DNA of 64,000 nucleotides from Pirellulaceae bacterium. Its GTDB lineage: Bacteria > Planctomycetota > Planctomycetia > Pirellulales > Pirellulaceae. The notes beneath the pieces are model-generated. The model was not told where the DNA came from. It did not search any database and saw only the letters and a list, made by a program, of their open reading frames with translations. Numbering within the stretch: the first letter of the stretch is position 1; each line of letters starts with the position of its first letter. This document shows positions 3,789 through 52,526 of this stretch, piece by piece. The stretch covers positions 1-64,000 of the forward strand of contig JBIIHW010000009.1 in assembly GCA_044235425.1 (NCBI GenBank). Reading direction: 5' to 3'. Made by a program: the position numbers and the translations under genes.

Positions 3789-3892
3789 TGCGTAAAGGCC
3801 CGGAGTGGGTTCACGCAAACGCGCTAAGTAGGCTCACGCTAAGGCGCTTAGGGCGCCAAGGTTAGAAGTCGGATGACGCGGAGGCGCCGCGG

Positions 3893-6218: not shown

Positions 6219-7448
6219 TTAAATCTGCCAAGGTTCGCGTCGCGCTCGATCCAGGAAACGATTCGCCTCGTCGTCTCCCACAAACGATTGAGCCGCCGCG
6301 TCCCATTTCAGGGAACGACGTAACGTATAAGCGATGATTCCCAGGTGACTCACCATCACCGAGTTCACCGCGTATTCGATATCGCGAAAGGGCTTTTCGC
6401 GTGTCTTCACGCATTCAATAAAATCGCCGTAAATGCCGCCGGTGCCTTTATAACTGGGGATCGCCTTGGGCTCGCGTTTTTCACCCGGCGTCCCTTCGAC
6501 GTGCAAATTCGCGGTATTGGGTTTGTTATGGTGGAGCAGAATTCCATTGGGATAGCGGAACGTCACATAATTGGCATCCGCGTGGTAGGTCACCTCTTCC
6601 GGCTGTAAGTCGCGGACGTCAATCGCGAACGTCGCGCCGCCGAAATGGTGGGCACCCCAGTCGGTCATGCCGCCACCCGAATAGTCGATGTACGAGCGCC
6701 AGCTGTTGCCGCTGGTGCCAAAATTGCCATCACAGCGAGCTTTGTTGTAGGGCGCCCAGGGAGCTGGGCCGAGCCACAAGTCCCAGTCGATATCGTCCGG
6801 CACCGCCTCGGCAGGCAGATTGCACGCTTGCGATAGCGGACCCACGTTGACGTTGATCGACTTGATGGCTCCCAGTTCGCCACCCCAGCACTTGTCGACC
6901 ACTCCCCGATAATCCTCCAGTACGCGCTGACTGCCCCCCGAAACCACGCGCGCGTAACGTCGAGCGGCGGCAATCATCAACGGCCCCTCGCGTAAGGTCC
7001 GCGTCTCCGGCTTTTGACAATAAACATCTTTGCCGCGGCGACACGCCTCAATCACCATCACAGCGTGCCAGTGATCGGGAGTTGCGATATGGACAGCATC
7101 GATGTCGCTGCGATCCAACAACTCACGAAAATCATTGTAGGCCTGGCAGTCACTGTTCTTGTAACGTTCATTGACCTTTGCCCGAGCATTTTCGCGAAAG
7201 CTCTTGCGCACATCACAGACGGCGACGTACTGCACATCCGCTCGCCCCAGGAAGGCGCCCATGTCACCGCGCCCCATGTTGCCGATACCAATCCCCCCCA
7301 TCACGATGCGATCACTCGCCGGCGGAACATCGGCATTTCCCAGCGCCGTGGAAGTGATAATGTAAGGAGTGGCCAGGGCGACGCCGGACGTCTTTAAAAA
7401 ATCACGGCGCGAACTTGCCGAATGAGCAGTCGCCGAAGGAGCGGACAT
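6219..7448 (-). CDS. Gfo/Idh/MocA family oxidoreductase, Tat-secreted
   Basis: Tat motif SRRDFLKTSGVALATP at the N-terminus, a Rossmann GGIGIGNMG motif and a Gfo/Idh/MocA C-terminal domain. Confidence 0.7.
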   Translation of the reverse strand: MSAPSATAHSASSRRDFLKTSGVALATPYIITSTALGNADVPPASDRIVMGGIGIGNMGRGDMGAFLGRADVQYVAVCDVRKSFRENARAKVNERYKNSDCQAYNDFRELLDRSDIDAVHIATPDHWHAVMVIEACRRGKDVYCQKPETRTLREGPLMIAAARRYARVVSGGSQRVLEDYRGVVDKCWGGELGAIKSINVNVGPLSQACNLPAEAVPDDIDWDLWLGPAPWAPYNKARCDGNFGTSGNSWRSYIDYSGGGMTDWGAHHFGGATFAIDVRDLQPEEVTYHADANYVTFRYPNGILLHHNKPNTANLHVEGTPGEKREPKAIPSYKGTGGIYGDFIECVKTREKPFRDIEYAVNSVMVSHLGIIAYTLRRSLKWDAAAQSFVGDDEANRFLDRARREPWQI

Positions 7449-13457: not shown

Positions 13458-15164
13458 ATGGAATCCCGTACTACAGCTGATGGATCCTGGCAGTTGCGTC
13501 CGCAATACGCCGCCGCTGCCAGTCCCGTGTTTCGAGCCGTCTGGGATGTGTCCGCGGGCGAGGAATTATTTCGGACGGAGCCGGGTGTGATTCGTCCCCA
13601 GGTCGCTCACGTCATGAACGCCTGCGAACAGATTGTGAATCGCGCGTTTCTCGATTCAACACTCTACGACCACCAGGGCAAGCTCTCATCGGCGCTGATC
13701 GCGCAGCTGGCGCAGGCAGGATACTGGGGACTGCTGATCGATGAATCGTATGGGGGAACAGCTGCCCATTATCGCGAGTTCATGCCACTGCTGACTCGCC
13801 TGGCCCGCTGGACGGGCACGGTCGCGGGACTCGCGGCGGTCCACGGCTGCATCGGAGCGGCGGGGCAATTGCAACGTTTTGGCAACGACTGGCAACAGCG
13901 GCAGTGGTTACCCAGCCTGGCTCGCGGTGAACGACTCGCCGCCTTCGCACTCACCGAACCCGGAGCCGGTTCCGATCTCACTCGCTTGCAAACTCGAGCC
14001 GTGCGAGTGGGTGAGGAGCTGTCGATTACGGGAGACAAGTTATTCATCACGAACGCCGACTATGGCCGAACGATTGGACTTGTCTGCTTGCTCGATGAGC
14101 AGCCGGCGGTTGTGATCTGCGATTTACCTTGGCAAGAGACTGAGAGTTTTCAGCTGGTGCATTACGAACTGCATGCTTTGCAGCACAATCTGAATCGCGG
14201 CCTCCGTCTGCGGAACTTTCGCGTACCGGTTAAAAACCTGCTCGAGCCGCCCCGAGGCGACGGACTCACGATCGCCTACCATGGATTGAATCGAGGGCGA
14301 GTGGCATTGTGTGCGCAAGCGGCTGGTACCATGCGCCGACTGCTGGCCAGCATGGTCGCCTGGAGTCAGGAGCGAATCACGTATGGCCAGCCGCTCGTCA
14401 CCCGCGAACTGGTGTTACGACGAATCGGGCGACTCGCAGCACTCATCGTGGGCTGCGATGCTCTGACCTGCTGGTCCGCTACGCTCCTCGATCACGGTTA
14501 TCGCGGGGAGCTGGAAGGAATCGTGACGAAGGTGTTTGCGAGTGACGCGCTGCGGGAGGCGGCGGTCGAACTGGCATTGAAGACACACGGTGGCCGTTCC
14601 TTTCTCAAAGGCCATCCGGTCGGCGATTACTTGCATGACTATCTGGCGACGAGCATCTACGAGGGCGAGAGTGAGCTGCTGAGCCTGGCACTGATTCGGA
14701 CCTTGATGAAGCCCACGTCAAAACCTGGTGTGGACTCAGCAGCCGTCGGCAGTAGCCGTGGCGCTCATAGCCGTGGCGCTCATAGCCGTGGCGCTCATAG
14801 CAGTGGCGCTCATAGCAGTGGCGCTCATAGCAGTAGCATTCGTAGCGCTAGCCCGCAGCTCGCCGAGCTGCGATTGCTGGGTGAAGAACTGCGGGCGGCC
14901 CAGCACCAACAGGGTGTGCAGCTCGCCGCTCGACAATGCTGGCTGGCGGAGCTCTCCGGGCGCATCCAGCGGCTGATTGTGCAGCTTGTGGTACAGCAGT
15001 ATCGCGCCGAGCAGTCCGACGATCGCGTGCGGCAGGCGGCAATCGTACTGATGGACGACTTGCAACGTCAGCTGCGAGGGCATCGGCCCAGCGAAGACGA
15101 GTATCAGCGGGTGGTGGAACTGGGACGGCAGGTGAGCGAGCGTGGATTCGTCGCCAGCGCCTAA
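13458..15164 (+). CDS. acyl-CoA dehydrogenase family protein
   Basis: ACAD-like middle and C-terminal domains (FALTEPGAGSDL, ITGDKLFITNA). The start lies 3 nt after the synthetase stop, suggesting an operon. The C-terminal region carries an in-frame (SRGAH/SSGAH)x6 repeat. Confidence 0.65.
   Translation: MESRTTADGSWQLRPQYAAAASPVFRAVWDVSAGEELFRTEPGVIRPQVAHVMNACEQIVNRAFLDSTLYDHQGKLSSALIAQLAQAGYWGLLIDESYGGTAAHYREFMPLLTRLARWTGTVAGLAAVHGCIGAAGQLQRFGNDWQQRQWLPSLARGERLAAFALTEPGAGSDLTRLQTRAVRVGEELSITGDKLFITNADYGRTIGLVCLLDEQPAVVICDLPWQETESFQLVHYELHALQHNLNRGLRLRNFRVPVKNLLEPPRGDGLTIAYHGLNRGRVALCAQAAGTMRRLLASMVAWSQERITYGQPLVTRELVLRRIGRLAALIVGCDALTCWSATLLDHGYRGELEGIVTKVFASDALREAAVELALKTHGGRSFLKGHPVGDYLHDYLATSIYEGESELLSLALIRTLMKPTSKPGVDSAAVGSSRGAHSRGAHSRGAHSSGAHSSGAHSSSIRSASPQLAELRLLGEELRAAQHQQGVQLAARQCWLAELSGRIQRLIVQLVVQQYRAEQSDDRVRQAAIVLMDDLQRQLRGHRPSEDEYQRVVELGRQVSERGFVASA
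14752..14838 (+). repeat. in-frame 15-bp tandem repeat (ggcgctcatagccgt, ~6 copies) inside the acyl-CoA dehydrogenase gene
   Basis: Read directly from the sequence. It encodes SRGAHSRGAHSRGAHSSGAHSSGAHSS. Confidence 0.9.
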
Positions 15165-16648: not shown

Positions 16649-18082
16649 ATGAACGATTTCCTCGAAAGCGCAGGAGCACGTGGTGCCAGTTGGCTGTTGG
16701 CAGCGATCGACTACGATCCGATTGCGCTGAGTTTAAAGAAGTTGCATGTGGAAGATGTGCTGCTGCCCGTCCTCGTGCAACTGGTCATCATTCTGATTGC
16801 CGCACGCGTGGCGGCTCGAGTGGCGATTCGACTGGGACAGCCGGGGGTGGTGGGGGAGATCGCCGCAGGCCTGCTGCTCGGCCCCTCACTGCTCGGCAAG
16901 TTTTTTCCAGAACTGTGGGGAGCGGTATTTCATCCCAATCCAGAGTTTCCGGGCTTGGTCGCGGGGTTATTCGACGTGACCCTCAACTGGATCTTTTCGG
17001 TTTTTAGTCAATTGGGGCTGATTTTGCTGCTGTTCCTGGTGGGACTGGAGTTTGATTTTGCGCATTTGAAAACAAGTGGACGTTCGGCGGCCGCGATTTC
17101 GCTGGCCGGCATCTTACTGCCGTTCACCTTGGGTGCCCTCGTCGGCTGGGGACTCCATCCCTTCTGTGAAGCTCATCCCGATTCGGGAGAAACTCCGCCG
17201 CTGTTCGGGATGCTGCTGTTTATGGGCACGGCGATGTCGATCACGGCGCTTCCGATTCTCGGACGCATGATGATGGAGTTTAACCTGACACGTACGCAGC
17301 TGGGGGTGGTGACGATTTCCGCCGCGGCGATCGACGATGTCGCAGGCTGGACGCTGCTGGCGACCGTCTCGTCGATCGTCAAAGGGGATTTCAAGCCGCA
17401 GGCAACCGCCTGGATGGTCTTGTCGACGGTCTTGTTTGCCGTGGTCATGATCTGGGTCGTCCGTCCGCTACTCGTGCGCTGGGTACGGTATGAAATGAAA
17501 CGCCGCAACGGACAACTGGGACTAGACGGGCTCGCCATCGTCTTCGTGCTCATCTTTGCGGCGTCAATCCTCACGAACAAGATTGGCATCTTTGCGATCT
17601 TTGGAGCCTTTACACTAGGGGCTTGCTTATCCACGGAGACTGAATTCCGGGAAGCGGTCTCGCGCCGTTTGCGAGATTTAGTAACGGCTTTTTTCCTGCC
17701 GATTTTCTTTACCTATACCGGACTGCGGACGAACATTGGGAGCTTGTCGAGCGGCACGCTGTGGCTCTGGTGCGGGCTGGTGCTAGCGGCGGCGGTCGTC
17801 GGCAAAATGTTGGGCTGTTCTCTGGCCGCCCGCATGACCGGCTTTTCCAAGCGCGAGGCGGGCTGCATCGGCGTGATGATGAATACGCGCGCCTTAATGG
17901 AACTGATCGTCATCAATGTCGGCTATCAGTTACGCGTGATTCCGCCGAGTGTTTTCTGCATGCTTGTCATCATGGCGCTGGTGACGACCGTGATGACGAC
18001 TCCACTCTTGACTCGTTTGATTCCCGGCACATCGGTCGCGGACTCGTTTCGCGAGTCGGAGTTCGCGCGGCGCACGTCGTAA
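16649..18082 (+). CDS. cation:proton antiporter (CPA2/Kef-type)
   Basis: About 12 predicted TM helices and Na+/H+ exchanger family motifs (GEIAAGLLLGPSLLG, conserved D/T in TM regions). Confidence 0.7.
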   Translation: MNDFLESAGARGASWLLAAIDYDPIALSLKKLHVEDVLLPVLVQLVIILIAARVAARVAIRLGQPGVVGEIAAGLLLGPSLLGKFFPELWGAVFHPNPEFPGLVAGLFDVTLNWIFSVFSQLGLILLLFLVGLEFDFAHLKTSGRSAAAISLAGILLPFTLGALVGWGLHPFCEAHPDSGETPPLFGMLLFMGTAMSITALPILGRMMMEFNLTRTQLGVVTISAAAIDDVAGWTLLATVSSIVKGDFKPQATAWMVLSTVLFAVVMIWVVRPLLVRWVRYEMKRRNGQLGLDGLAIVFVLIFAASILTNKIGIFAIFGAFTLGACLSTETEFREAVSRRLRDLVTAFFLPIFFTYTGLRTNIGSLSSGTLWLWCGLVLAAAVVGKMLGCSLAARMTGFSKREAGCIGVMMNTRALMELIVINVGYQLRVIPPSVFCMLVIMALVTTVMTTPLLTRLIPGTSVADSFRESEFARRTS

Positions 18083-18219
18083 GACACTCGTCGTAAGACA
18101 CTCGTCGTAAGACACTCGTCGTAAGACACTCGTCGTAAGACACTCGTCGTATGGCACTCGTCGTAAGACACTCGTCGTAAGACACTCGTCGTAAGACACT
18201 CGTCGTATGGCACTCGTCG
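18076..18219. repeat. 14-bp tandem repeat (cgtaagacactcgt with cgtatggcactcgt variants) x~10
   Basis: Read directly from the sequence. The first unit overlaps the TAA stop of the antiporter gene. Confidence 0.9.
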
Positions 18220-44888: not shown

Positions 44889-45386
44889 ATGTCACAAAAA
44901 CACGTTGTATCCGCGAACATCAATGGCGACCGAGTGGAGTTTCTTTGCGAGCCGCGTCAGACGCTACTCGAAGTGCTCCGCAATACGCTCGATTTGACCG
45001 GCACCAAAGAAGGCTGTTCCAACGGCAACTGCGGCGCCTGCACGGTACTCATGAATGGTCGGCCGGTGGTGAGCTGCTTGGTGCTAGCCATGGAGGCGGA
45101 GGGGAGCGAGATTCGCACGATTGAAGGGGTCGCCTGCGGCTCTCACCTCAACGAAATCCAGCAAGCATTTCTGGAAGGTGCGGCACTGCAGTGCGGAATC
45201 TGCACGCCCGGCATCATCATGCAATCCGAAGCCCTGCTGGCCAAGAATCCCCAGCCGACGGAAGACGAGATTCGTTTCCACTTGGCAGGCAACCTCTGCC
45301 GCTGCACGGGCTATGACAAGATCGTCCGCGCCGTCCAAGCGGCCGCTCAAAAACGTCAAGCTAACCTTGCTGCCAGCCCGTCCTAA
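44889..45386 (+). CDS. molybdenum hydroxylase (2Fe-2S)-binding small subunit (CoxS-like)
   Basis: Plant-type ferredoxin cluster CSNGNCGACTV and a second cluster QCGICTPG ... CRCTGY. The start was set at the internal ATG at 44889. Confidence 0.8.
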   Translation: MSQKHVVSANINGDRVEFLCEPRQTLLEVLRNTLDLTGTKEGCSNGNCGACTVLMNGRPVVSCLVLAMEAEGSEIRTIEGVACGSHLNEIQQAFLEGAALQCGICTPGIIMQSEALLAKNPQPTEDEIRFHLAGNLCRCTGYDKIVRAVQAAAQKRQANLAASPS

Positions 45387-45451
45387 AGGTGCGGCAGTCC
45401 GCCTGGCACAACGGTGGCAGCCATCGTGGCCCCCTGGTACGGACCATCACG

Positions 45452-45497
45452 CACTCCCAAAAAACGCACTCCCAAAAAACGCACTCCAACAACTCAC
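45452..45497 (+). repeat. 15-bp direct repeat (cgcactcccaaaaaa) x~2.7 upstream of the Mo-subunit gene
   Basis: Read directly from the sequence. It lies in the leader immediately upstream of the coxL-like ATG at 45545. Confidence 0.7.
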
Positions 45498-45544
45498 AGA
45501 TTAATCCCGCATTCCTCCCTCTGAACCGAACAGGTATCACTCCC

Positions 45545-47824
45545 ATGTCACTCGCCGATAAGCCCAAATACAAAGTGATTGGCACTCGCCCTATTCGCCA
45601 TGATGGCGTGGACAAAGTGACGGGGCGTGCGAAGTATGGAGCAGACATCAAGCTGAATGGGCTGCTCTACGCCGCCATGCTGCGCAGTCCTCACGCCCAC
45701 GCCCGGATCAAACGCATCGATACCTCGAAGGCGGAAAACATGCCGGGCGTACGGGCGATAGCGACGAGTGCCGATTTGCCCGAGCAGGGTGATCGGATTG
45801 TGGAACTAGGCGAAGGCGCGGTGAACATGCGGCACTTGAGCTGCAATGTTCTGGCGCGCGACAAAGTGCTCTATCGTGGTCATGCGATCGCCGCCGTCGC
45901 CGCCGACTCGATTCACCAAGCCGAAGAAGCGGTCAAGCAGATTGAAGTGGAGTATGAGTTATTGCCACCCGTGCTGCAGGTGCTCGACGCCATGCGTAGC
46001 GATGCGCCGATCCTGAACGACGACGTGCGCACCGAGACGCTCGGCGGCATCGGTGACTATTCCACTGGCCCCACAAACATCGCCAAACGGATCATCATCG
46101 AAAAGGGAAATCTGGAGCAGGGCTTTGCGGCTTGCGATGTGATTGTCGAGCGGACGTTTGATACGGCGATGGTCCATCAAGGCTACATTGAACCGCATAA
46201 TGCGACGGTGTTATGGAGTCCGGATGGCAAGATTACGGTCTGGATGAGCACGCAGGGTTCATTCACCGCTCGGCAACAGACGGCCGAGTTACTGCGGGTA
46301 CCGATTTCCGCGGTGAAGGTCGTGCCGATGGAAATTGGTGGTGGCTTTGGTGGAAAGATTTCAGTCTATCTGCCGCCGGTGGCGGCCGTGTTGTCGAAAA
46401 AGACGGGCCGCCCCGTGAAACTGGTCATGTCGCGCACGGATGTGCTCGAAGCGACCGGTCCCACCCCGGGCTCGCACATGAAAATCAAGCTCGGGGCGAC
46501 GCGTGATGGCCGGCTCATGGCGGGCGACGCCTGGGTGGCGTTTGAGGCTGGAGCGTTTCCGGGTTCGCCGATTGGTGCGGCCGTCATTTGCGTCTTTGCT
46601 TGCTACGATATTCCGCATGGACGAGTCGAGGGTTATGACGTCTGCGTGAATCGACCGCGCACCAACGCTTATCGCGCGCCAGGTTCCACGCAGGTCGCGT
46701 TCGCCGTGGAGACGGTGATCCAGGAGCTGTGCGGGAAGCTGGGAATTGACCCTGCCGAATTTCGGCTCAAAAACGCCGCTCGCGAAGGCACTCGCCGTGT
46801 CGACGGCCCGGTATTCCAGCGTGTGGGGCTGGTGGAAACGGTGCAGGCGATACGGGACAGCGAACATTACCGCTCGCCGCTGGGTGGCAAGCATCGCGGA
46901 CGTGGCATCGCGTCCGGTTTCTGGATGAACTGTGGTCTGAAGTCGGCGGTTACGGCCACGGTGAACCCCGACGGTACGGTGTCGCTGGTCGAAGGTTCGA
47001 CCGACATTGGCGGCAGTCGTACCGGTATCGCGATGCAGTTGGCCGAGACACTGGGAATTCGCGCCGAAGATGTCACTCCGACGATTGGCGATACCGACAG
47101 CGTGGGCTACACCGACGTGACGGGAGGTAGTCGAGTGACGTTTGCGACGGGCATCGCCGCCTACGAAGCGGCTCAGGACATTAAACGGCAACTCATTCAG
47201 CGTGCGGCATTGCTCTGGAGCGTACCGGCCAGCGAGGTGAGTTATCGCGACGGTGGCGTCACCGGCCCCGGCGATCAGCGACTTAGCTTTGCCGAAATCG
47301 CCGCCAAGATCGCCCACACGGGAGGCGCGGTGATTGGCAGCGGCACCTCCAGTGAAGCTCAGCAGGGTGGCGCGTTCGGCACGCACTGCGTGGATGTCGA
47401 GGTTGATCCGGACACCGGCAAAGTGCAGATTCTCCGCTACACCGCCGCTCAAGACGTCGGCACCGCAATTCACCCCAGCTACGTCGAAGGTCAGATTCAA
47501 GGGGGAGCGGTTCAAGGGATCGGCTGGGCGCTCAGTGAAGAGTACTGGTATGACGCACAAGGCACGATGCGAAACTCCACGTTACTCGATTACCGCACTC
47601 CCACCTGCTACGACGTGCCGATGATTGACACGATTCTGGTTGAAGTCCCCGATCCGGCTCATCCCTATGGGGTGCGCGGAGTAGGCGAGGTGCCGATTTG
47701 CCCGCCACCCGCGGCGATCGCCAACGCGATTGCTCAAGCCGTCGGCGTCCAGATGACGCAGTTGCCGATGTCGCCACCCCATCTGCTCGCCGCAATCCTC
47801 AAGTCTCGCGCCGCGAAGTCTTAA
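45545..47824 (+). CDS. molybdenum hydroxylase large molybdopterin-binding subunit (xanthine dehydrogenase/aldehyde oxidase/CoxL family)
   Basis: Aldehyde oxidase/xanthine dehydrogenase a/b hammerhead and MoCo-binding domains (GRAKYGAD, HAHARI, GGGFGGK, active-site E near C-terminus region GVGE). The start was set at ATG 45545. Confidence 0.8.
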   Translation: MSLADKPKYKVIGTRPIRHDGVDKVTGRAKYGADIKLNGLLYAAMLRSPHAHARIKRIDTSKAENMPGVRAIATSADLPEQGDRIVELGEGAVNMRHLSCNVLARDKVLYRGHAIAAVAADSIHQAEEAVKQIEVEYELLPPVLQVLDAMRSDAPILNDDVRTETLGGIGDYSTGPTNIAKRIIIEKGNLEQGFAACDVIVERTFDTAMVHQGYIEPHNATVLWSPDGKITVWMSTQGSFTARQQTAELLRVPISAVKVVPMEIGGGFGGKISVYLPPVAAVLSKKTGRPVKLVMSRTDVLEATGPTPGSHMKIKLGATRDGRLMAGDAWVAFEAGAFPGSPIGAAVICVFACYDIPHGRVEGYDVCVNRPRTNAYRAPGSTQVAFAVETVIQELCGKLGIDPAEFRLKNAAREGTRRVDGPVFQRVGLVETVQAIRDSEHYRSPLGGKHRGRGIASGFWMNCGLKSAVTATVNPDGTVSLVEGSTDIGGSRTGIAMQLAETLGIRAEDVTPTIGDTDSVGYTDVTGGSRVTFATGIAAYEAAQDIKRQLIQRAALLWSVPASEVSYRDGGVTGPGDQRLSFAEIAAKIAHTGGAVIGSGTSSEAQQGGAFGTHCVDVEVDPDTGKVQILRYTAAQDVGTAIHPSYVEGQIQGGAVQGIGWALSEEYWYDAQGTMRNSTLLDYRTPTCYDVPMIDTILVEVPDPAHPYGVRGVGEVPICPPPAAIANAIAQAVGVQMTQLPMSPPHLLAAILKSRAAKS

Positions 47825-47826
47825 CC

Positions 47827-48090
47827 ATGCCGCGACTGTTTATTCCCCCGCAGCTACGAGCGTCCGTGGGAGGCTGCGAGGTGGTGGAGGCTCCCAGTGG
47901 TACCCTGGGTGCCGTGGTGGAAGATGTGGAACGGCGGTTTCCGGGCTTTCGCGCACGGATCTGCGTGGCCGATCAGATCCGTCCGGGCCTGGCGATCTCC
48001 ATCGATGGGCGGTTCGCCTCCCTGGGCCTGCTGCAACCGGTTGGGGAGTCGGCCGAGGTGCATTTTTTGCCCGCGGTCGGCGGCGGATGA
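47827..48090 (+). CDS. MoaD/ThiS-family ubiquitin-like sulfur-carrier protein (C-terminal GG)
   Basis: An 87-aa protein ending ...FLPAVGGG-stop, as in MoaD/ThiS. It starts 3 nt after the large-subunit stop. Confidence 0.55.
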   Translation: MPRLFIPPQLRASVGGCEVVEAPSGTLGAVVEDVERRFPGFRARICVADQIRPGLAISIDGRFASLGLLQPVGESAEVHFLPAVGGG

Positions 48091-48183
48091 CCAGGCGGCG
48101 GATGGGACGCGGCGCCGCCCGGCACGCGATCCTCAGGATCCATCCGTGGAAAGAGTGGTATGGCAAAGCCTGCTCCCCCACAC

Positions 48184-48626
48184 GAAAAAAAGAGAAGTCA
48201 ATTCGCCGACGCGTCGCTTTCAGTTTTTTCCTGCGGGAGAGAAGGGATTTTTCTTACGTGAATGTGGATCGCGCTTGAGGGGTTTATTTTATGTGTAAAC
48301 GAATCTTCAAAGGAAACGTGCTCCCCTCTCCCCAATCAGAAAAATCGGGTTATTATCCATTTTGAAATAAGATGCCATTTTTCTGACTGGGGAGAGGGGC
48401 TGGGGGTGAGGGGCTAGAGCGACGCTTGCAGCACGCACACCAGCTTGTCTTATGGATACAACTCGCGGCAGAAAAAACGATCATCTCGCTGCGAGCCAAA
48501 GAGCAAAACCTGCTGGCTTGCCTGCGAACTGCTGGCCCCATCGGCCTCCTCATCCCCGTCGCTTCTCCCCCACAGGAAAAAGAGGTGAGTCAATTTGCCG
48601 ACGCAATGCTCAGCGTTTTTTCCTGC
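48184..48626. other. structured AT-richer non-coding island: ~60-bp imperfect direct repeats (48184-48243 and 48565-48626) flanking a 23-bp-stem hairpin (48322-48400)
   Basis: The direct repeats are gaaaaa(a)gag..agtcaatt(c/t)gccgacgc...ttttttcctgcgggagagaag, each ending in a T-run. The inverted repeat is cccctctccccaatcagaaaaat / atttttctgactggggagaggg with 1 mismatch and a 31-nt AT-rich loop. Local GC drops sharply. Confidence 0.6.
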
Positions 48627-48829
48627 GGGAGAGAAGTAACGCGATAAACCTTCGCGGCACGATGCCGTGATCCGAATGGCAGGATGCCCTCACCCATTTG
48701 CCAACTCGAGGTCATCAAAACTCCAGTTGCCGGTGAACCAGTTCAATTCTCACCAGGAACTTGCCGATTCACTGGAAGCCGAATACACTACTCACGTGTC
48801 CTTCCGATTTTGGCTACCGGCTTGTCGCC

Positions 48830-49360
48830 ATGACTCTTCATCCTCGTCACTCTCTGAGCTGGCTTTTTCTTGTGCCGCGCGGCATGGCCTCGACTGGGCG
48901 CTGGTTCCCCGTGAGCCTGACGTTTCTGGTGGCGCTGCTCCTGGTGCCGCTGATCTTGGCGGAGCGAGTAGAGGCTGGGTGCGGCAGTTATGTGCGAGTC
49001 GGCAACTGGCAGCATGGTGGGCGGCAGCTGAGGGCGAGCGGTGTAATGGACTGGCGAATGCACGGAACGGTCGGTCCGGCATCGCAGGGTCTGCAGCGCA
49101 CTTCTATGCGGTTGCACCTGGGTGGTCAGGATGAAGCGCCGAGTGACTGTCAGGGGCCGAACTGTTCACGACAATCGGCACCGCTGAAGGTTCCCGCCCC
49201 AACGTCTGTGCCACGTTCCCACTCGCCGGAGATCTTACCGCTTCGGTGGGAAGTTTGGGCGCCGCAATTCTGTTGTTGCGGTTGGTTAACACTGGACGCC
49301 GCAAGTCCGCTGCAGCGGGCAGCTTCTATCTTGCGTCCGCCGCGTGTGGCAGGCAGCTGA
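48830..49360 (+). CDS. hypothetical small membrane/secreted protein (very uncertain)
   Basis: An ORF with a hydrophobic segment (WFPVSLTFLVALLLVPLILA). It has no recognisable family. Overlapping ORFs in other frames mean the region may be non-coding. Confidence 0.2.
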   Translation: MTLHPRHSLSWLFLVPRGMASTGRWFPVSLTFLVALLLVPLILAERVEAGCGSYVRVGNWQHGGRQLRASGVMDWRMHGTVGPASQGLQRTSMRLHLGGQDEAPSDCQGPNCSRQSAPLKVPAPTSVPRSHSPEILPLRWEVWAPQFCCCGWLTLDAASPLQRAASILRPPRVAGS

Positions 49361-49663
49361 GTAGCCGTCGACAGGTGGTTGCGCTGCTGGCTGCTGGATG
49401 GAATCCCTGAATTTGAATCAGCTGGTGTCATACGAGCTGGTTTCGATTGAACTGGTTTCGCTATCGCGGATTTCCACAAAGCAGGTTGGCGTAAATCCCT
49501 CTTCGGCGAGTGTTGAAGCGTCTGTGACTCGGCATCTTTTGATGTTCGGAGTACAGTCTCAGCGACATCGGCGTTAACAGCCGCTGCGTTAGTCCGTTCT
49601 GTGAAACTCACGGTTGGCCTATTTCTTGCACATTCAGGCGCACTTTTTATAGGGATTCATCCC

Positions 49664-52423: not shown

Positions 52424-52526
52424 GAAGTCTCAGAGTCTCAGGAACTACAAGTCTCAGGAACTACAAGTCTCAGGAGCTACAAGTCTCAGGAGCTACAAGT
52501 CTCAGGAGCTACAAGTCTCAGGAGCT
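52424..52526. repeat. 16-bp tandem repeat (agtctcaggaRctaca) x~6
   Basis: Read directly from the sequence. It is intergenic between the RTX-like giant gene stop and the membrane-protein gene start. Confidence 0.9.

Follow-up and report, generated by a model that had tools for sequence, protein, structure and literature searches.

We conclude that a structured island in the spacer between a ThiS/MoaD-like gene and a conserved 176-aa gene is probably an insertion of a non-autonomous, MITE/REPIN-like family of nested-palindrome repeats, and we infer the mobility of this family from sequence comparisons. The island lies in a 64-kb stretch of DNA from a Pirellulaceae bacterium, referred to here as the window. 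A non-autonomous mobile repeat fits because the family is dispersed in many copies, some of them near-identical with unrelated flanks; because copies are truncated, decayed or mosaic; and because the family occupies intergenic sites, is polymorphic at the site in the window and is non-coding. The family is best read as a previously undescribed set of small, hairpin-forming interspersed repeats in Planctomycetota. Full-text searches on REPs and MITEs in Planctomycetes yielded one relevant report (PMC3733652), and it contains no description of the present family. The repeats would be an addition to a phylum with little-described mobile and repetitive DNA. For annotation, the analysis offers an explanation of the island, restores a missed gene at 48830-49360 and flags nine database proteins (P0124-P0132) as probable translations of the repeat.

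Layout, composition and folding of the island

The island begins ~15 nt beyond the stop codon of the ThiS/MoaD-like gene (Table 1). The orthologue of this gene in the closest relative, contig L034, gives a weak PF02597 match, and an exact look-up of the window protein returned no identical entry on record. A first-pass annotation had described a gene-free gap of ~1.7 kb at this place. The island is indeed non-coding, but the gap as drawn also contains the 176-aa gene, which is annotated at the matching position in L034 and in a further relative, L044. Its product has a hydrophobic N-terminal segment, matches no Pfam family and has orthologues confined to close relatives (P0121, 100% identity; P0122, 63%; P0123, 46%). 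An antisense ORF of 113 aa (47840-48181, minus strand) lies opposite the ThiS/MoaD-like gene and enters the left edge of the island; it is without support and looks like a GC-rich antisense artefact.

Table 1 Features of the locus, with sites of 'hypothetical proteins' that overlap repeat copies elsewhere
Feature	Position	Strand	Basis or remark
ThiS/MoaD-like gene, 87 aa	47827..48090	+	ORF; last of xanthine-dehydrogenase-family cluster
Island, present here and absent at the relatives' orthologous site	48106..48721	.	blastn against L034 and L044; junction alignments; edges precise to roughly 10-20 nt
H1, solo hairpin-B module (first direct repeat)	48169..48247	+	repeat D1; nhmmer; fold; upstream portion of unit missing
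AT-rich spacer separating H1 from the full unit	48248..48318	.	GC 0.42-0.46
Complete repeat unit (hairpin A, central imperfect palindrome, hairpin B)	48319..48640	+	alignment; nhmmer; fold
Hairpin A (H2), the long hairpin of the first-pass annotation	48323..48399	+	inverted repeat; fold
G-run motif GGGGAGAGGGGCTGGGGGTGAGGGG	48389..48413	+	regex scan; TRF row
Central long imperfect palindrome, 156 nt	48402..48557	+	domain boundaries from MFE fold
Hairpin B (H3), second direct repeat (repeat copy 48562-48636)	48558..48640	+	repeat finder; fold
176-aa conserved gene	48830..49360	+	ORF; orthologues; gene calls in L034 and L044
Repeat-overlapping 'hypothetical protein' sites	L018 2049-2468; L049 135-446		

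The locus carries three hairpins of 75-83 nt, H1, H2 and H3. The outer two correspond to direct repeats that had been noted as ~60 bp long. These repeats are real and lie close to where they had been placed, but a repeat finder gives them a length of 75 nt each (48170-48244 and 48562-48636, 81% identical), and a 21-mer common to both, TTTTTTCCTGCGGGAGAGAAG, has three matches in the window against 0.01 expected. Each direct repeat is a long imperfect hairpin of ~80 nt, with the arms of H3 at 48557-48589 and 48609-48641. The 23-bp inverted repeat reported between them was confirmed at 48323-48345 and 48377-48399, with a single mismatch and 31 nt between the arms; the 31-nt loop is AT-rich and includes TTATCCATT, which is common to the copies from another genome described below. 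The AT-richer character of this segment was likewise borne out, with a GC content of 0.42-0.46 over 48175-48399, compared with flanks of 0.58-0.70 and a window average of 0.587. In the central palindrome, GGGGGTGAGGGGC... is paired with ...CCTCCTCATCCCC. No further copies of any hairpin arm were found elsewhere in the 64-kb window.

About 400 of the 616 bp of the island belong to the repeat family. The three non-family segments, including the spacer between H1 and the full unit, have no significant similarity to one another in either orientation and no match among the loci compared. We rejected the possibility that the 616-bp island is a single element with its own terminal repeats, given that these three segments are mutually dissimilar. 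The ends of the repeat unit itself are inverted, with GCTCCCYTCTCCCC at the left and GGGGAGARGGG(AGC) at the right. On the minus strand, hairpin B and its inner flank are arranged just as hairpin A and its inner flank are on the plus strand. These matching inverted layouts suggest that the unit consists of two diverged half-elements arranged head to head.

Folding was assessed against dinucleotide shuffles. The z-scores on the plus and minus strands were -7.0 and -8.2 for H3, -5.2 and -6.6 for H2, and -1.7 and -4.1 for H1, for which the folding energies are -26.1 kcal/mol (plus) and -35.8 kcal/mol (minus). For the whole unit (48316-48640) they were -9.2 and -11.0 on the two strands, and the full unit on contig L029 folds comparably (z of -9 to -11, either strand). 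Covariation, which the first-pass annotation had proposed to check, is present: among five copies (window, L029, L019, L030 and L004), 5 of the 33 predicted pairs of hairpin A have changed in both partners and still pair, as in C-G to U-A and A-U to C-G. The pairing of hairpin A is thus maintained by compensatory change. The central long-range consensus stem is also kept in five copies and is mostly invariant; this stem and the outer stem of hairpin B are near-invariant, and hence uninformative for covariation.

Strong fold z-scores on both strands and the conservation of central blocks between the window and the other copies are compatible with the unit, or each hairpin, being a structured small-RNA gene in several copies per genome; a small-RNA gene was among the options in the first-pass annotation. 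So is the greater stability of hairpins A and B on the minus strand, by 4 kcal/mol on average. However, this strand signal is inconsistent. The minus-strand advantage arises because G-U pairs replace A.C mismatches, and for hairpin B (mean 4 kcal/mol, in 23 of 26 copies) it is due mostly to one inherited A.C position; in the window copy's central stem and in hairpin A of L019, the wobbles fall on the plus strand. No one strand is favoured throughout, and this speaks against a function as a single-strand RNA. A search of the whole window with Rfam gave no match at gathering thresholds. Permissive matches scored 14-27 bits, the best being H2 against eukaryotic miRNA-precursor models (20-27 bits, where the thresholds are 72-245 bits), and the L029 copy gave only generic miRNA-precursor noise (thresholds of 73-150 bits). 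A promoter scan found no promoter-like site. In addition, copies are truncated at many differing points, and the island is absent from a close relative. We regard a small-RNA gene as improbable.

Each direct repeat had also been described as ending in a terminator-like hairpin with a T-run. We rejected an intrinsic terminator, since the T-run at 48614-48621 pairs with an A-run at 48577-48581 within the long stem and leaves no free tail; a scan for terminator-like sites was at chance level, with 3 found and 3.0 expected. Where hairpin A meets the central stem lies the G-run motif GGGGAGAGGGGCTGGGGGTGAGGGG, which has four G-runs with 2-4-nt loops and is also found in L029 (~6562-6587). Its sequence could allow a G-quadruplex, in competition with the hairpins. 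The entire window contains four G-run motifs of quadruplex pattern on the plus strand and three on the minus strand.

Copies of the repeat in other genomes

The 20-mer TTTTTCCTGYGGGRGAGAAG, taken from hairpin B, was scanned against one representative genome per species (596 Gb, in which we estimate that ~4 matches would arise by chance). It matched 33 stretches: 26 contigs of a single Planctomycetota MAG, JBJSXJ01, and 7 unrelated singles. The first-pass annotation had called for a search of the genome for further copies; the scans covered the 64-kb window, which has none beyond this locus, and other genomes, among which this MAG has many. The MAG copies led us to reject the proposal that the direct repeats are target duplications: with the same hairpin module on 26 contigs of another genome, sequence comparison identifies the direct repeats as copies of a family module. 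The earlier suggestion of a miniature mobile element stands in so far as the family is multicopy and absent at the relatives' site, but not in its target-duplication detail.

In the JBJSXJ copies, which were ascertained through an intact hairpin-B arm, hairpin B is intact at full length in 24 of the 26 contigs. Of the 26 copies, at least 16 are no more than a few hundred nt from a contig end, and several are cut by the end. Dispersed repeats usually leave this pattern when they interrupt short-read assemblies, and the present repeats appear to break metagenome assemblies of these genomes. Window positions 48504-48636 are 76-82% identical to ~20 JBJSXJ copies, and the block 48319-48636 aligns end to end, over 350-365 nt at ~66% identity, with L029 6491-6852, L019 3880-3517, L030 and L015. 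A family profile built from the full-unit alignment (nhmmer) matched the window block with E = 4e-84 and H1 with E = 3.6e-17, the latter at model positions 273-351. By this profile the 64-kb window contains one full unit and one solo hairpin, at a single locus.

The window unit measures 322 bp, against 360-370 bp for the MAG copies, and its centre is ~50 bp shorter than theirs. The L016 copy and H3 of the window both end exactly after ...GAGAAG. Most JBJSXJ copies continue after hairpin B into a 58-nt 'tail' module, which is also found beside hairpin A; an inverted tail module to the left of hairpin A in the window was considered and rejected, as the alignment was unconvincing. The JBJSXJ copies include 5'-truncation classes that start at ~6490, 6593, 6643 and 6686 (reference positions), and some have a degenerate hairpin A. 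All are embedded in classical GTAG-tagged REP arrays, and mosaics with these arrays occur. Truncation, degenerate hairpins and REP mosaics of this kind are decay typical of dispersed repeats. The same MAG has intergenic GTAG REP-like arrays (GTAGCGGCACGGCGTCAGCCGTCCGGCC; tandem units of 37 nt and 44 nt) at L029 6270-6460 and 6900-7180 and at L018 34-229, and in the first 400 nt of L003 and L021 REP-like arrays take the place of the left half of hairpin B. The window contains no REPs of the JBJSXJ GTAG type.

Copies at separate JBJSXJ loci can be 93-95% identical over 480-650 bp with unrelated flanks, which we take as signs of recent copying. No segment longer than 730 bp is common to the 26 loci. 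The near-identical stretches take in neighbouring modules, and this would also be expected if the repeats were inert, either as degraded termini of an insertion sequence that was formerly autonomous or as products of spread by recombination or gene conversion, with no current mobility. The mosaic architecture, in which tails are common to either hairpin, the copies within REP arrays and the lack of a detectable target-site duplication (TSD) point the same way. On the other hand, in two genomes that are otherwise dissimilar over the regions compared, full-length units have preserved the three domains and the paired arms, and no longer parent element is seen among the 26 loci. We consider inert remnants quite unlikely.

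The family is not confined to JBJSXJ. Searching a protein database with the translated repeat returned only 'hypothetical proteins', from three MAGs with the locus-tag prefixes ACKOBW, ACKOU6 and ACKOUR, which look like the product of one study. These repeat-derived ORF matches extend the family to the MAGs JBJTKQ and JBJTKC, whose contigs bear further copies. JBJTKQ is also home to the closest relative of the window locus, and its repeat-bearing contigs are short and may be mis-binned. The matches comprise nine proteins of 78-135 aa (P0124-P0132); the four whose contigs were examined overlap repeat copies (examples in Table 1). A coding repeat was considered, given a consensus that is stop-free for ~100 codons and PGAP calls of hypothetical proteins, and was rejected because the phase and extent of the open frame vary by copy. 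The length of an A-run differs between copies, and such indels shift the frame, which counts against coding. ORFs within the island are at most 73 aa long and cross the hairpins. We conclude that the repeat unit is non-coding, no phase being consistently open across copies, and that P0124-P0132 are probably translations of the repeat and not genes.

Searches of other collections did not enlarge the family. A metagenome scan with the 20-mer gave four chance matches, none from the family; scans of viral contigs gave no family match, nor did blastn searches of plasmid and phage collections. The absence of other nucleotide similarity between JBJSXJ and the window is no evidence of phylogenetic distance, since it reflects only the non-overlapping samples of the two genomes.

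Presence or absence at the orthologous site and genomic siting

The first-pass annotation had proposed a comparison with syntenic genomes for presence or absence of the island, and this comparison was informative. The closest relative, L034, is a contig of JBJTKQ whose xanthine dehydrogenase (XDH) is 97% identical at the protein level, with DNA identity of ~86%. In L034 and L044 the gene order is as in the window: XDH, ThiS-like gene, 176-aa gene, DUF1559 gene. By blastn, window positions 45000-48103 and 48742-49397 align to both contigs, and nothing between them does, so that ~616 bp of the window (roughly 48106-48721) stands against 14 bp in L034. L044 is an independent assembly, and its empty site is identical to that of L034. 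In the more distant relatives L036-L038, which have another downstream gene, the spacer after the ThiS-like gene is only ~60-90 bp. The contig encoding P0002, from another MAG, has a gene order unlike that of the window locus.

The simpler explanation of this contrast is an insertion in the lineage of the window, although it is not proven; a deletion in the relative could instead have produced the same pattern. We found no TSD at the island edges or at the copies on L004, L016, L019 and L029, where the ends are fuzzy by ~5 nt and a TSD of 2-3 bp is possible. Similarly, neither the island edges nor the MAG copies show a defined target sequence. A Logan contig, L043, is 100% identical to the window and starts at 48653, 17 nt after H3. 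This start hints at a repeat boundary without establishing one. At its other end, L043 stops inside a tandem array (52434-52526).

All copies examined are intergenic and nearly always lie at gene 3' ends or between convergent genes; flanking ORFs have their 3' end facing the repeat in 6 of 6 cases on the left and in most on the right. This siting raises the possibility that the repeats are host structural or regulatory elements of gene 3' ends, such as attenuators, stabilisers of mRNA 3' ends, RNase III targets, or sites for nucleoid proteins or gyrase. Such roles have been proposed for REP/BIME, ERIC and Correia elements. At the window locus, the island would then insulate the xdh-thiS-like cluster from the 176-aa gene, a role compatible with a mobile origin. 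Consistent with a host role, the hairpins are very stable, hairpin A is preserved through compensatory changes, and the island begins almost directly after the ThiS-like stop codon. However, the close relative has the same gene pair without the island, no U-tail follows the stems, terminator-like sites occur at chance level and many copies are truncated or degenerate. Moreover, selection against insertions into promoters would equally explain the siting at 3' ends. We consider a host element of this kind unlikely as the main explanation.

Relation to known elements and a candidate mode of spread

REPINs are REP doublets that form hairpins and are mobilised by RAYT transposases (Bertels & Rainey 2011, PMC3116915). 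Like REPINs, the present family is non-coding, extragenic and multicopy, and two inverted half-units fold into a long hairpin as single-stranded DNA or RNA. Singlets occur beside doublets, with the solo hairpin B at 48169-48247 and the head-to-head halves corresponding to the two forms; there is no obvious target duplication; and the JBJSXJ copies sit among classical GTAG-tagged REP arrays. The family differs in size, with a unit of 320-370 bp in which each half has its own 75-83-nt hairpin, whereas REPINs are about 100 bp. Its arms are not short REP palindromes and carry no conserved GTAG or CGTC tag. The sequence CGTC precedes H3 in the window only (48557-48560), the MAG copies having CAGCCCTTAC instead. 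Measured against a REP, defined as a palindrome of 20-40 bp with a GTAG or CGTC tag, the hairpins are too long (75-83 nt) and untagged. Nor was a RAYT found among the ORFs scanned here.

Tagged REPs of 20-40 bp with a tetranucleotide tag have been described in the PVC superphylum (Di Nocera et al. 2013, PMC3733652). The family resembles these and BIMEs in forming mosaic clusters of palindromic modules at gene 3' ends, in alternative combinations and orientations, but its modules are several-fold longer and untagged, and the window itself is without GTAG-type REPs.

The family also resembles MITEs such as Correia and ERIC/IRU elements: it is small, non-coding, intergenic and interspersed, with inverted ends and a fold that takes in the whole element, and its insertion is polymorphic between related genomes. 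The unit falls within the size of a non-coding MITE (<~600 bp) and has terminal inverted repeats in the two end motifs given above. Many copies are found in JBJSXJ (26 contigs), and one unit plus one solo hairpin in the 64-kb window. Correia elements of Neisseria are 100-155 bp long and are flanked by a TA duplication, and the enterobacterial ERIC elements are ~127 bp. Unlike Correia elements, the family shows no target-site duplication, and so departs from MITEs in this feature; it is larger than Correia and ERIC elements and has three nested stem-loops compared with their one. We know of no cognate IS with the ends of this family.

PATEs, which derive from IS200/IS605 elements, lack a TSD and carry bulged or mismatched imperfect hairpins close to each end, and the hairpins of IS200/IS605 elements are roughly 20 nt long. 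They are a possible parallel, to which the family would be similar in its imperfect end hairpins, its lack of a TSD and a slight strand asymmetry in stability. Its hairpins are far longer, and neither a conserved cleavage tetranucleotide nor a TnpA or TnpB was found. On balance, the family would function most like REPINs and MITEs with long terminal inverted repeats (Correia, ERIC).

We rejected integron attC sites as an identity for the hairpins, since the ends CTTCTCCCCC / GGGAGAGAAG are without the AAC/GTT cores (RYYYAAC ... GTTRRRY). The first-pass annotation had also suggested an attachment site, and none of the features observed here indicates one. Protein-family scans covered 20 window ORFs, including one shorter ORF and 18 of the 39 that are 220 aa or longer. 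Among these 20 there was no integrase, no transposase and no PF01797-type protein (RAYT, Y1 HUH). An autonomous partner IS with the ends of the family was found neither among the 26 JBJSXJ loci nor among the 20 ORFs.

Taken with the data above, the favoured reading of a non-autonomous mobile repeat suggests the following route. The family would have spread through copying by a transposase encoded elsewhere in the genome, which would recognise the hairpin ends, and one such event may have placed a copy in the spacer between the ThiS/MoaD-like gene and the 176-aa gene. A hairpin-recognising single-strand enzyme (HUH/Y1, RAYT or IS200-type) would fit slightly better than a DDE enzyme, because there is no target duplication, long bulged or mismatched hairpins lie at both ends, and REP arrays occur alongside the copies in the MAG. 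We infer that copies arise by transposition, with an enzyme of RAYT or IS200 type as the candidate. If a cognate enzyme is found, the unusually long nested hairpins could help to explain substrate reading by hairpin-recognising transposases.

It is improbable that the three hairpins together form a lineage-specific structured nucleic acid (~320-370 nt) with a function, acting as a multicopy RNA or as the substrate of hairpin-guided single-stranded DNA transposition. If they did, the conserved G-runs at the junction and the TTATCCATT loop would play a role. In the case of a transposition substrate, the enzyme would lie outside the recognised REP/RAYT or IS200 pairings.

Other repeats are present in the window. 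Short-period tandem arrays, perfect or near-perfect, lie at 1-70 (14 nt x 5), 14753-14831 (15 nt x 5.3), 18075-18219 (14 nt x 10.4) and 52434-52526 (16 nt x 5.8), and a distant orthologue contig, L045, likewise opens with a short tandem array. An 84-nt hairpin at 2090-2173, with 21-nt arms that are 86% complementary, lies between the genes for DNA polymerase III delta' and a DUF1501 protein. A second occurrence of its 16-nt core, GGCTCACGCTAAGGCG, is found downstream of the DUF1501 gene at 3828-3845, where it adjoins a 23-nt x 2 repeat (3804-3848). To judge by this recurrence, the two palindromes may represent a second small palindromic repeat family.
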